In this document: positions 9,696 through 14,960 of the stretch, piece after piece
Layout: each line of letters starts with the position of its first letter
How positions within the stretch are numbered: the stretch's first letter is position 1
Assembly: GCA_030390025.1 (NCBI GenBank)
Contig: CM059435.1
Coordinates: 102,548,001-102,612,000 of the forward strand
Reading direction: 5' to 3'
Source: Squalus acanthias
Lineage: Eukaryota
Length of the DNA: 64,000 nt
Translations under genes and position numbers: made by a program
The notes under the pieces: generated by a model
What the model saw: only the letters and a program-made list of their open reading frames with translations
What the model was told of the DNA's origin: nothing
Database searches by the model: none

Positions 9696-10645
9696 TGTTC
9701 TATTTCCTGTTAATGAACCTATATTAAAATATTTTTGGCGCAGAAAGTTGAAACTCTGTTCACAAAATAGATATGGATGAGGAAGACCAGTTGGCCAATT
9801 CTACTTCATCCAAACATATCCTACAGTACCCTTAACATATTGCCAGCTGTTTTTAAATGATTCCAGGATCTATTCCTCCACTACCTCACCCAGAGGTCCA
9901 GTCCATTTATTGATCATTCCTGACCCCAGTCTGAAATTTGACTTTCACTAGTTTGAATCTGTGCCCTCTTGCCATACTGACATGATAGTGTTCCAGATTT
10001 ATTTATTCTATGAAGTTTACTATCTTTTATAACTCTATAAGACCATCTCTCAATCTCCTTCTTTCAAGCAAATACAGAAGAGTATAAATACACAAATCAC
10101 TAAAAGTAGCGACACAGGTTAACAAGGCCATCAAAAAGGAAACCAAGTACTAGGGTTTATTTCTAGAGGGATAGAATTGAAAAGTAGGGAAGTTATGCTA
10201 AACCTGTATCGAACCTTGGTTAGACCACACTTAGAGTACTGCGTACAATTCTGGTCGCCATATTATAAAAAGGATATAGAGGCACTGGAGAGGATGCAGA
10301 GAAAATTTACAAGGATGATACCAGAAATGTGAGGGTATACATATCAGGAAAGGATGAACAGGCTGGGTTTCTTTTCTCTTGAAAAGAGAAGGCTGAGGGG
10401 TGACCTAATAGAGGGCTTTAAAATTATGAAAGGTTTTGATAGAATAGATACAGAGAGAGTGTTTTCACTTGTGGGAAGAGCATAACTAGATGCCATCAAT
10501 ATAAGATAGTCACCGAGAAATCAAATAGGGAATTCAGAAGAAACTTCTTTACCCAGAGAGTGGTGAGAATGTGGAACTCGCTACCACAGGGAGTGGTTGT
10601 AGCGAATAGTGTAGATGCATTTAAGGGATGGTTAGATGAGCATAT

Positions 10646-11464
10646 CCATGTTACCGTGTTAGGGAACTGGAGCTGGAGCTGGATGAACTTCGGATCATTC
10701 GGGAGGCAGAGGAGGTCATAGATAGAAGCCTCAGGGATGTAATTACTCCAAAGCATGAAGATAGATGGGTGACGGTGAGAGGGGCTAGGAGGAAGCAGTC
10801 AGTGCAGGGATCCTCTGTGGTCGTTCCCCTCAGTAACAGGTATACCGCTTTGAATACTGTTGAGGGGGACGACTTACCAGTGGTAAGCCATGGTGACCGG
10901 ATCTCCGGCGCTGGGTCCGTCCCTGTGGCTCAGAAGGGAAGCGGGGAGAGCAGGAGAGCAATAGTTATTGGGGACTCAATAGTCAGAGGGACAGATAGGA
11001 GGTTCTGTGGCAGCAAAAGAGACTCACGGATGGTATGTTGCCTCCCGGGTGCCAGGGTCCGTGACGTCTCGGACCGTGTTTTCAGAATCCTCAAAGGGGA
11101 GGGGGAACAATCACAAGTCGTGGTACACATCGGTACCAACGACATAGGTAGGAGAAGGGACGGGGATTTAAAACAGGAATTTAGGGAGCTAGGTTGGAAG
11201 CTGAGAGCCAGTACAAACCATGTTGTAATTTCTGGTTTGTTGCCGGTGCCACGTGCTAGCGAGTTGAGGAACAGGGAGAGAGTGCAGATAAACACGTGGC
11301 TGCAGGGATGGTGTAGCGGGGAGGGTTTCAGTTATGTGGATAATTGGAGCACATTCTGGGGAAGGTGGGACCTGTACAAACAGGACGGTTTGCACCTGAA
11401 CCAGAGGGGCACCAATATCCTGGGAGGGAAATTTGCTGCGGCTCTTCGGGGGGGTTTAAACTAA
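10646..11464 (+). CDS. CR1 ORF1 protein (coiled coil + SGNH/GDSL esterase domain), N-terminally truncated
   Basis: Frame is open from RVRELELELDELRIIREAE through VIGDSIVRG, VVVHIGTNDIG and DGLHLNQRG (SGNH blocks I, III, V) to TAA at 11462-11464. Confidence 0.9.
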   Translation, partial: PCYRVRELELELDELRIIREAEEVIDRSLRDVITPKHEDRWVTVRGARRKQSVQGSSVVVPLSNRYTALNTVEGDDLPVVSHGDRISGAGSVPVAQKGSGESRRAIVIGDSIVRGTDRRFCGSKRDSRMVCCLPGARVRDVSDRVFRILKGEGEQSQVVVHIGTNDIGRRRDGDLKQEFRELGWKLRASTNHVVISGLLPVPRASELRNRERVQINTWLQGWCSGEGFSYVDNWSTFWGRWDLYKQDGLHLNQRGTNILGGKFAAALRGGLN

Positions 11465-14361
11465 TTTGTCAGGGGGATGGGAAAAAGGGCTGTAGTCCAG
11501 GAGCCAGTGGTGAGTGTAGGGAGGTACTGAGGAGGGTATCAAGGTCGCAGGAATGTACCGGCAGACAGGAAGATGGCTTGAAGTGTGTCTACTTCAATGC
11601 AAGGAGCATCCGGAATAAGGTAGGAGAACTTGGAGCGTGGATTGGTACTTGGGACTACGATGTGGTGGCCATTACGGAGACATGGTTAGAACAGGGACAG
11701 GAATGGTTGTTGGAAGTTCCGGGGTATAGATGTTTCAGTAAGAGTAGGGAAGTTGGTAAGAAAGGTGGAGGAGTAGCATTGTTAATCAAGGATAGTTTAA
11801 CAGCGGCAGAAAGGCAGTTCGAGGGGGATCTGCCGTCTGAGGTAATATGGGCTGAAATTAGAAATAGGAAAGGAGCGGTCACATTGTTAGGAGTTTTCTA
11901 CAGGCCCCCAAATAGTAATAGAGATGTGGAGGAAGAAATTGCAAAGCAGATTATGAATAGGTGTGGAGGTCACCGAGTAGTTGTCATGGGTGACTTCAAC
12001 TTTCCAAATATTGATTGGAACCTTTATAGGTCAAACAGTTCGGATGGGATAGTTTTTGCACAGTGTGTGCAGGAGGGTTTTCTGACACAATATGTGGATA
12101 GGCCGACAAGAGCTGGGGCCACGTTGGATTTGGTACTGGGTAATGAACCGGGCCAAGTGTTTGATTTGTATGTGGGAGAGCACTTTGGAGATAGTGACCA
12201 CAATTCGGTAACTTTCACTATTGCAATGGAGAGAGATAGGGCCATACGGCAGGGCAGGGTTTATAATTGGGGGAGGGGTAATTATGATGCGATTAGGCAA
12301 GAATTAGGGAGTATAAGATGGGAACAGAAACTATCAGGGAAAGGCACAAACGAAAAGTGGAGCTTTTTCATGGAGCAATTACTGCGTGTGCTTGATAGGT
12401 ATGTCCCTGTCAGGCAGGGAGGAAATGGCCGAGTGAGAGAACCATGGTTCACAAAAGAGGTTGAATGTCTAGTCAAGAGGAAAAAGGAAGCGTATATAAG
12501 GATGAGAAAACAAGGTTCAGTTGGGTCGATTGAGGGGTACAAGGTAGCAAGGAATGAGCTAAAAAAAGAGCTTAGGAGAGCTAGGAGGGGGCATGAGAAG
12601 TCCTTGGCGGGTCGGATCAAGGAAAACCCCAAGGCTTTTTACTCTTATGTGAGAAATAAAAGAATGACCAGGGTGAGGGTAGGGCCGGTCAAGGACAGTA
12701 GTGGGAACTTGTGCATGGAGTCAGAAGAGATAGGAGAGGTGATGAATGAATACTTTTCGTCAGTGTTCACCGAGGAGAGGGGCCATGTTCTTCAGGATGA
12801 GAGTGTGATAAAGGTGGATAGGCTGGAGGTGGTAGATGTTCTGAGGGAAGATGTTTTAGCAATTTTGAAGAACCTGAGGGTCGATAAGTCCCCTGGGCCA
12901 GATGGGATATATCCTAGGATTCTTTGGGAGGCAAGGGAGGAGATTGCAGAGCCTCTGGCTTTGATCTTTGGGTCCTCACTGTCCACGGGAATGGTGCCAG
13001 AGGACTGGAGAGTGGCGAATGTTGTTCCTCTCTTCAAGAAAGGAAATAGGAATGACCCTGGTAATTATAGGCCGGTTAGTCTTACTTCGGTGGTTGGTAA
13101 GATAATGGAAAAGGTCCTGAGGGATAGGATTTATGACCATTTGGAAAGGGGCAACTTAATCAGGGATAGTCAACACGGATTCGTGAAGGGTAAGTCTTGC
13201 CTAACAAATTTGATTGAATTCTTTGAGGAGGTAACTAAGTGTGTAGATGAAGGTAGAGCAGTTGATGTCGTATACATGGATTTTAGTAAGGCGTTTGATA
13301 AGGTTCCCCATGGTCGGCTCATGAAGAAAGTAAGGAGTTGTGGGATAGAGGGAAATTTGGCCGATTGGATAAGTAACTGGCTATCTCATAGAAGGCAGAG
13401 GGTGGTGGTGGATGGAACATTTTCGGACTGGAGACCAGTTACCAGCGGTGTGCCACAGGGGTCGGTGCTGGGTCCTCTGCTGTTTGTGATTTTTATCAAT
13501 GACTTGGAGGAGGGGACTGAAGGGTGGATCAGTAAATTTGCTGATGACACCAAGATTGGTGGAGCAGTGGATGAGGTGGATGGCTGTTGTAGGCTGCAAA
13601 GAGACATTGATAGGATGCAGAGCTGGGCCGAAAAATGGCAGATGGAATTTAACCCTGATAAGTACGAGGTGATTCATTTTGGTAGGGCAAATTTGAATAA
13701 GGATTACAGGGTCAACGGCAGGGTTCTGAGGAACGTGGAGGAGCAGAGGGATCTGGGGGTTCATATCCACAGATCTCTGAAGGTTGCCACTCAAGTGGAT
13801 AGAGCAGTAAAGAAGGCCTATGGTGTGTTGGCGTTTATTAACAGAGGGTTTGAGTTTAAGAACCGTGAGGTTATGCTGCAACTATACAGGACCTTGGTGA
13901 GACCACATTTGGAATATTGTGTGCAGTTCTGGTCACCTCACTATAGGAAGGACGTGGAAGCATTGGAAAGAGTGCAAAGGAGATTTACCAGGATGCTGCC
14001 TGGTTTGGGGGGGAGGTCTTATGAGGAAAGATTGAGGGAGTTGGGGCTTTTCTCTTTAGAGCGGAGGAGGATGAGAGGCGACTTAATAGAGGTTTATAAG
14101 ATGATGAGGGGGATAGATAGAGTGGATGTTCAGAGACTATTTCCTCGGGTAGAGGCAGCTGTTACAAGGGGGCATAACTATAAGGTGCATGGGGGGAGAT
14201 ATAGAAGGGATGTCCGAGGTAGATTCTTTACTCAGAGAGTGGTTGGGGTGTGGAATGGACTGCCTGCTGTGATAGTGGAGTCGGACACTTTAGGAACTTT
14301 CAAGCGGTTATTGGATAAGCACATGGAGCACACCAGAGTAATAGGGAGTGTGATAGCTTGA
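11455..14361 (+). CDS. CR1 ORF2: APE-type endonuclease + reverse transcriptase
   Basis: Stop-free frame (ORF track 11344-14361): CVYFNARSIRNK, AITETW, VMGDFNFP, SDH (endonuclease); KSPGPDG, YRPVSLTS, DFSKAFDKV, GVPQGSVLGP, FADD (RT). The true start is uncertain because there is no AUG before 11953. Confidence 0.95.
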   Translation, partial: FKLICQGDGKKGCSPGASGECREVLRRVSRSQECTGRQEDGLKCVYFNARSIRNKVGELGAWIGTWDYDVVAITETWLEQGQEWLLEVPGYRCFSKSREVGKKGGGVALLIKDSLTAAERQFEGDLPSEVIWAEIRNRKGAVTLLGVFYRPPNSNRDVEEEIAKQIMNRCGGHRVVVMGDFNFPNIDWNLYRSNSSDGIVFAQCVQEGFLTQYVDRPTRAGATLDLVLGNEPGQVFDLYVGEHFGDSDHNSVTFTIAMERDRAIRQGRVYNWGRGNYDAIRQELGSIRWEQKLSGKGTNEKWSFFMEQLLRVLDRYVPVRQGGNGRVREPWFTKEVECLVKRKKEAYIRMRKQGSVGSIEGYKVARNELKKELRRARRGHEKSLAGRIKENPKAFYSYVRNKRMTRVRVGPVKDSSGNLCMESEEIGEVMNEYFSSVFTEERGHVLQDESVIKVDRLEVVDVLREDVLAILKNLRVDKSPGPDGIYPRILWEAREEIAEPLALIFGSSLSTGMVPEDWRVANVVPLFKKGNRNDPGNYRPVSLTSVVGKIMEKVLRDRIYDHLERGNLIRDSQHGFVKGKSCLTNLIEFFEEVTKCVDEGRAVDVVYMDFSKAFDKVPHGRLMKKVRSCGIEGNLADWISNWLSHRRQRVVVDGTFSDWRPVTSGVPQGSVLGPLLFVIFINDLEEGTEGWISKFADDTKIGGAVDEVDGCCRLQRDIDRMQSWAEKWQMEFNPDKYEVIHFGRANLNKDYRVNGRVLRNVEEQRDLGVHIHRSLKVATQVDRAVKKAYGVLAFINRGFEFKNREVMLQLYRTLVRPHLEYCVQFWSPHYRKDVEALERVQRRFTRMLPGLGGRSYEERLRELGLFSLERRRMRGDLIEVYKMMRGIDRVDVQRLFPRVEAAVTRGHNYKVHGGRYRRDVRGRFFTQRVVGVWNGLPAVIVESDTLGTFKRLLDKHMEHTRVIGSVIA

Positions 14362-14576
14362 TCTTGGTCTCGGACAATGCTCGGCACAACATCGAGGGCC
14401 GAAGGGCCTGTACTGTGCTGTACTGTTCTATGTTCTATGAGGGAGAAGGGAATAGAGGGTTATGCTGATAGAGTTAGATGAGGGAAGATGGGAGGAGGCT
14501 CGAGTGGAGCATAAATATCGGCATGGACTGGTTGGGTCGAATGGCCTGTTTCTGTGCTGTATCTCCTATGTAATCC

Positions 14577-14960
14577 GTGACTGAGTTGGTAGCTATCTCG
14601 CTTCTGATTCAGAAGTTTGTGGGTTCAAGCTCCACTCCAGAGATTTGAGCACAAAATCTAGGCTGACACTCCAGGGCAGTATTGAGGTGGTCCTGCAAAA
14701 GATCCCACGACAGTATTCGAAGAAGAACAGGAGAGTTCTCCCTGGTGCCCTGGCCAATATTTATCCCTTTACCAACGTCACTAAAAACAGATGAGCTGGT
14801 CATTTGCTTCATTGCTGTTTGTGGGATCTTGCTGTGTGCATATTGATTGCCGCGTTTCCTACATTGCAACAATGACTACACTTCGAAAAAATACTTAATT
14901 GGTGCTTTCAGACATCCTGAGGTCATGAAAGGTGCTATATAAATGCAAGTTCTTATTTTT
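14577..14960 (+). mobile_element. tRNA-headed Deu-domain SINE (SacSINE1/AmnSINE-like) with L2-type tail
   Basis: GGGTTCAAG.TCCACTCCAGAGA.TTGAGCACAAAATCTAGGCTGACACTCCAG head; tail GGTGCTATATAAATGCAAGT; same family as 51577-51960. Confidence 0.75.

Follow-up and report, generated by a model that had tools for sequence, protein, structure and literature searches.

A conserved T TTA AAC heptamer at the ORF1-ORF2 junction of a CR1 retrotransposon of Squalus acanthias, a probable programmed -1 ribosomal frameshift site

The window analysed here is a stretch of 64,000 nt from the Squalus acanthias genome (assembly GCA_030390025.1, contig CM059435.1, positions 102,548,001 to 102,612,000 of the forward strand), and we studied a CR1 long interspersed nuclear element (LINE) found at positions 10653..14439 of this window, on the plus strand as are all its features given below. 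The copy belongs to a young CR1 family, is truncated at its 5' end and lies inserted in an older CR1 fragment, within the 3' portion of the latter. Its 5' boundary near 10653 was found by comparison with a family copy having the whole first open reading frame (ORF1), and older CR1 sequence flanks it on both sides, with ORF2 matches at 10088-10667 and further CR1 sequence at 14440-14580. A remnant of ORF1 remains at 10653..11464, with the start codon and the zinc-finger part lost; the whole ORF1, of 308 amino acids (aa), was found in 10 of 30 fetched family copies. The remnant holds an SGNH/GDSL esterase domain (10964..11410; PF13472, E 5.8e-13). ORF2 encodes an APE-type endonuclease domain (11590..12201; PF03372, E 8.1e-22) with the motifs NARS (11596), TETW (11674), YRPP (11899), GDFN (11989) and SDH (12193), followed by a reverse transcriptase (RT) domain (13042..13761; PF00078, E 7.9e-36) and the ORF2 stop at 14359-14361. 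As read from the sequence, the 3' untranslated region (UTR; 14362..14439) ends in short tandem repeats (14408-14439) without poly(A), as is usual for CR1 LINEs.

Judged by its domains and by homologues in birds, turtles and rays, the element is a CR1 LINE with a type IVB ORF1. Whole ORF1s of the family and its relatives have, by eye, an N-terminal zinc finger with two Cys pairs and a leucine zipper with a Leu heptad pattern, and the closest named ORF1 relative was from the shark Mustelus (82%). The same zinc finger/leucine zipper and esterase ORF1, endonuclease-RT ORF2 and vertebrate range are found in the CR1-lineage LINEs with an esterase ORF1 (type IVB, CR1 subgroup 7), as described by Metcalfe and Casane 2014 (PMC4120745). 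As the window copy is 5'-truncated and without the ORF1 start codon, the signal at its ORF1-ORF2 junction matters in full-length copies and not here.

In the window copy ORF1 ends in GGT TTA AAC TAA (11453-11464), and the heptamer T TTA AAC (11455..11461), the predicted -1 shift site, lies in the X_XXY_YYZ register directly 5' of the stop codon (11462..11464). ORF2 is in the -1 frame, which reads FKLI at the junction, is open from 11344 to 14361 and gives 968 open codons from the heptamer. The first 47 of these (11455..11595) form an open linker without Met, and the first in-frame ORF2 ATG (11953..11955) lies inside the endonuclease domain. The register, the -1 frame and the first ATG are as claimed in a preliminary description of the sequence, which had placed that ATG downstream of NARS and TETW; YRPP also precedes it. 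An out-of-frame ATG at 11477 was rejected, as it opens an ORF of 17 codons and is absent in several families. A second X_XXY_YYZ heptamer, G GGT TTA (11452..11458), overlaps the first in families ending in Gly-Leu-Asn and is absent where GCT or GAT precedes TTA. TTTAAAC occurs 13 times in the window (both strands), ORF1 and ORF2 of the window copy each have four X_XXY_YYZ heptamers in register, and the junction 9-mer TTTAAACTA was found once against 0.66 expected. The lone heptamer is thus within chance expectation, and the signal is its conservation.

For the region 11250-11750, all 40 scored genome matches (of 798 candidates in the 3.7-Gb genome) were ~100% identical. As near-identical family copies say nothing on selection, other families were sampled. 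Using a short ORF1 anchor, 8,906 of 9,628 copies (92.5%) with Leu-Asn in register had the exact T TTA AAC, and the reversed-pattern controls for this anchored search gave 0 matches. The non-exact Leu-Asn copies noticed among the first 100 listed rows end in T and remain X_XXY_YYZ. A longer ORF1 anchor pattern ignoring the junction gave 10,727 matches. In a sample of 70 loci not selected on the junction (the first 30 of a position-ordered list and 40 later rows picked for anchor variety) the exact heptamer stood in register in 48, and in 56 when nearby indels were allowed.

Since the copies descend from few masters, the loci were sorted into groups with the junction left out of account; upstream of it 66 of 111 were collinear, and nine families 58-89% alike took in 62 of these. 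In the family majorities Leu was TTA in 9/9, Asn was AAC in 8/9 and the preceding base was T in 8/9, and the residue before Leu-Asn varied between Gly, Ala and Asp. Among control columns with an invariant residue a single codon was kept in 0/10 six-fold, 2/11 four-fold and 2/8 two-fold cases, and TTA makes up 13% of the other ORF1 Leu codons (in a codon table that includes two frame-broken copies). The heptamer is thereby conserved beyond amino-acid need. The directly adjacent ORF1 stop is as conserved as the heptamer, being TAA in seven and TAG in two of the nine majorities. Across 1,743 ungapped columns of 11 whole-element representatives TTTAAACTA at 11455 was the only invariant run of at least 7, a result biased by the choice of these representatives for having the heptamer.

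The phase is conserved as well, the young families being almost all in -1. All 30 fetched copies of the window family share the junction; their first ORF2 Met is at residue 166, and none has an AUG overlapping or adjoining the ORF1 stop in the ORF2 frame. In another lineage with an open ORF2 of 975 aa the first Met is at 178. The linker lacks an in-frame Met in the window family and in L059, L148, L122, L052 and L123, so that the supposed absence of an AUG upstream of the endonuclease stands for the window family and not for all its sisters (see below). Linker length varies from 47 to 73 codons across families, with little similarity past ~20 nt, and the linkers are still open in -1. Among 11 representatives selected for being intact, linkers of 47-71 codons were open in -1, and shuffled versions stayed open to the endonuclease in 0.1-9.5% each. 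By this comparison the open -1 linkers show entry at the junction, which fits termination followed by reinitiation as well as it fits frameshifting.

To look beyond this genome we compared 239 ORF1-like proteins, of which 182 had scorable tails, 159 of them unique. Leu-Asn-stop ended 78 of the 159, x-Gly-Asn-stop ended 20, and 22 had x-Lys-Asn. The named Leu-Asn-stop sources were rays, sharks, Hyla, Leptobrachium, Gopherus, Macrochelys, Chelydra and Hirundo (swallow). The residue before Leu came in 15 forms, with a T-ending codon possible in 77 of 78; the residues without a T-ending codon (K, E, Q, M and W) stood there in 1 of 76 as against 19.7% in the eight preceding positions (binomial p 1e-6, overstated as the sequences are related). 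Where the frame is broken upstream, as in four proteins, the junction reads FKL, the -1 reading. In the x-Gly-Asn tails x was Gln in 17 of 20, and a G-ending codon was possible in 20/20, a T-ending one in only 2/20. Between the conserved pair and the stop, the x-Lys-Asn class has a varying 0-12 codons. These two classes would fit G_GGA_AAC and A_AAA_AAC, which Atkins et al. (PMC5009743) count, like U_UUA_AAC, among the heptamers on which mammalian ribosomes shift most readily. In the ESM Atlas the Gly-Asn and Lys-Asn proteins fall close to clusters of eukaryotic esterases. As a separate observation, six esterase ORF1s (P0094, P0112, P0146, P0151, P0157 and P0206) end near Phe-Phe, Gly-Phe-Leu or Ser-Phe, and might hide U-rich slip sites.

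A metagenome scan for junction DNA gave ten weak matches (25-36% identity), none with a junction or endonuclease match; viral scans gave 0, 2 (23-25% identity) and 0 matches and a scan of other genomes 0. The junction sequence was absent from the searched supplements of PMC4120745, PMC11303007 and PMC8665684. In the files searched, the matches in the PMC2817409 supplement fell close to the 3' end of ORF2, and of the 7 matches for PMC4316615 the 2 listed were unrelated.

Downstream of the heptamer the preliminary description had noted G-tracts and a weak GGCT..AGCC hairpin, and both are present. The G-tract block (G5, G3, G3; 11472..11489) is a candidate stimulator. The first run of at least four G starts at +8 to +11 after the heptamer in 11/11 lineage representatives, against 1-4% for a random 4-nt window, and by G4Hunter score the G-tract exceeds 95-99.8% of the windows of its own element in all 15 elements compared. 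With regard to a fold or G-quadruplex 3' of the heptamer, ViennaRNA predicted two-tier quadruplexes starting at +7 to +11 in 11 of 18 representatives, and no stem. The +1..+80 fold of the window copy was no better than its shuffles (z 0.09), and the 80 nt 3' of the heptamer hold only 5-9 C in the 18 representatives. We rejected the GGCT..AGCC hairpin as stimulator, as it was not above shuffles and not common to the representatives. In reporters a G-quadruplex placed 5-8 nt 3' of UUUAAAC stimulates -1 shifting, up to ~7% and best at 6-8 nt (PMC3919603). In the loci L041-L055 and L087-L156 the G-runs flanking the heptamer were seen to differ in length between old copies, often breaking the frame, and yet they stay in coding sequence.

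Taken together, we suggest that the conserved T TTA AAC and stop, with ORF2 in the -1 frame, probably constitute a programmed -1 frameshift site giving an ORF1-ORF2 fusion. The esterase-endonuclease-RT fusion by gag-pol-style frameshifting that had been proposed from the window alone is in this way supported, by comparison of copies. We infer the slippage, the fusion, the control of the protein ratio and the role of the G-tract as follows. Most ribosomes would terminate at the end of ORF1, yielding its 308-aa protein, and a minority would slip back one base by tandem -1 slippage on UUA AAC. The slipped ribosomes would pass the 47-codon linker into the endonuclease and RT, producing at low frequency a fusion of ~1,274 aa (308 + 966). 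A low ORF2:ORF1 ratio would be fixed by the frameshift, and the enzyme could be tethered to ORF1 multimers. Further, we speculate that the pause might come from the G-tract at +8 to +11 (as a weak G-quadruplex or with a bound protein) and/or from the adjacent stop, and not from a hairpin.

The junction shares with known -1 frameshift systems, as far as these are covered in the consulted part of PMC5009743, the same heptamer and register, with a structural protein upstream and an enzyme downstream. It differs from them in that no hairpin or pseudoknot stem was found 5-8 nt downstream, and in that the Pfam matches include no protease domain to cut the fusion. Frameshifting in a LINE has precedent, since the Dictyostelium elements TRE5-A and TRE3-A (APE-type non-long terminal repeat elements) are stated to require a -1 frameshift for ORF2 in a figure legend of a review (PMC5911963). 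These elements differ from CR1 in host and ORF1, and the likeness is drawn from the statement in the review. A frameshift for CR1 was not found in our literature search, which did not cover the original CR1 papers, so an earlier remark is possible. The main text of PMC4120745 mentions neither frameshift nor overlap, and its searched passages give no route for ORF2 translation; in the passages searched of a 2026 survey of chordate CR1-group elements (bioRxiv 10.64898/2026.01.13.699120) frameshift, overlap and start codon are not mentioned. The searched passages of a chicken CR1 study and of an esterase structure paper likewise contain no ORF2 translation route.

Several points weigh against a frameshift. 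The support is comparative, and as copies and families are related the counts are not independent. Evidence beyond this genome is at the protein level, the DNA comparison being confined to this genome, and the proteins are linked to an ORF2 by presumption; 39 of the 159 unique tails fit none of the three classes. The first endonuclease motif was detectable in 76 of 95 heptamer loci, with 52 in -1, 15 in 0 and 9 in +1; we read the 24 loci outside -1 as probably decayed copies with indels, often with altered G-run length. A quadruplex formed by the G-tract would have two tiers at most, none was predicted for the window copy, and fewer quartets give less shifting (PMC3919603). No Watson-Crick stimulator was found over +1..+80 in the 18 representatives (z -1.6 to +1.9, pseudoknots not searched separately), nor any long-range partner for the G-tract common to 15 elements. 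Several families have an in-frame Met in the linker, at codons 18-21, 38-44 or 52-58, and one subfamily has TAATG, where an ATG in the ORF2 frame overlaps the ORF1 stop. Mammalian L1 reinitiates without an AUG, and AUG-independent initiation is described as likely for mammalian LINE ORF2 in the consulted part of Atkins et al. (PMC5009743).

The last of these points bear on termination-reinitiation, by which ribosomes would stop at the ORF1 end and restart nearby in the -1 frame, with or without an AUG, to make a separate ORF2 protein, the motif being a termination/restart context. The stop, as conserved as the heptamer and adjoining it, agrees with this, as do the TAATG subfamily, the ATT at the same place in the window family and the linker Mets of other families. 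Mammalian L1 and silkworm SART1 have a bicistronic LINE RNA as in CR1; the L1 ORF2 does not need its AUG, and the L1 ORFs are separated by a spacer, unlike the CR1 junction. The SART1 ORF2 is translated by UAAUG coupling, and among the subfamilies of this CR1 group just one has a SART1-like TAATG. The codon that overlaps the stop is freely variable (ATT, ACT, GCT, AAT, AAA, ATG, AGT), close sisters of the TAATG copies (L147 and L150) have TAATT with the heptamer kept in all, and Met positions are not common between families. TGGGA (UGGGA in RNA), the core motif of the termination upstream ribosome-binding site (TURBS), is present in the interval 25-95 nt ahead of the stop in just 5 of the 15 elements and at differing places, and a conserved TURBS core was rejected. 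Nor does reinitiation at a fixed motif predict the variable stop distance of the x-Lys-Asn class. We consider reinitiation unlikely. The TAATG subfamily comprises L088, L110, L111, L124, L125, L129, L139, L142 and L149, all with the heptamer position kept, and together with its TAATT sisters offers a natural case for comparing frameshift with reinitiation.

It seems very improbable that the motif serves at the RNA or DNA level outside decoding, as a protein-binding or packaging site, or reflects a protein need for a C-terminal Leu-Asn, with ORF2 starting at a near-cognate codon such as TTG at 11578. Near-cognate codons do occur in frame before NARS, and an element acting at the nucleotide level would be invariant too. 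A protein need, however, leaves unexplained the single Leu codon and the T-ending codon before it; internal initiation leaves unexplained that the linkers have an open frame from the heptamer onward and vary by whole codons; and a binding site gives no reason for the X_XXY_YYZ register or for its change in step to the Gln-Gly-Asn form. Splicing, in which CTAAY followed by (C)AG and the G-run would be a branch point and acceptor for a subgenomic mRNA that links ORF2 to a donor in the 5' UTR, is barely credible: an AG lies just 5' of the G-run in most junctions and donor-like sites exist in the 5' UTR, but there is no polypyrimidine tract, only ~8 nt separate the would-be branch point from the AG, the first ATG past the acceptor (11477) is out of the ORF2 frame, contigs of runs whose RNA origin is a guess cross the junction without splicing (4/4 contig runs show no joint, a weak test with contigs and not raw reads), and elsewhere no GT..AG joint was found among the 15 listed of 55.

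Some further observations concern the element and its surroundings. More CR1 ORF2 fragments lie in the window at ~1.7-2.2, 9.0-9.7, 23-24, 29.5-31, 46.6-48.1 and 52.7-53.6 kb. Longer copies (L024 at ~455-785; L007, L012, L015, L026 and L028) have a 5' UTR with GC-rich tandem units of ~76 nt, as seen by eye, each carrying a donor-like CAG/GTARG, and within ~70 nt of the ORF1 ATG two further donor-like sites and a pyrimidine tract with AG. An NCBI protein labelled Carnobacterium maltaromaticum (P0242) is a CR1 ORF2 60% identical to that of the window, likely host DNA in a bacterial assembly. Ray and catshark gene models (P0014, P0019, P0248) carry CR1 ORF1 or ORF2 sequence under the names of ribosomal protein S24, hydroxyacid oxidase 2 and inositol polyphosphate phosphatase isoforms, and are likely annotation artefacts or exonised copies.

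We conclude that the junction carries a genuine signal with deep conservation, in an element family already known, and that programmed -1 frameshifting, a known mechanism which we have not found described for CR1, explains it best. A wider proposal is possible, and we hold it with more doubt than confidence: that all CR1s with an esterase ORF1, which are dominant in many vertebrates, make a Gag-Pol-like fusion, the slip site having switched between U_UUA_AAC, G_GGA_AAC and A_AAA_AAC and the stimulator being a short G-tract with the adjacent stop and not a hairpin or pseudoknot. If so, this would be a very widespread natural frameshift signal without obvious RNA structure, and a natural case of a kind demonstrated until now mostly with engineered reporters. 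It has long been asked how LINEs produce the ORF2 protein when one RNA carries two genes, and few elements have been studied. If CR1 uses -1 frameshifting, its working enzyme would be the ORF1-ORF2 fusion, ORF2 annotations starting at the first Met or at a near-cognate codon would be wrong, and CR1 retrotransposition assays would need an intact junction.

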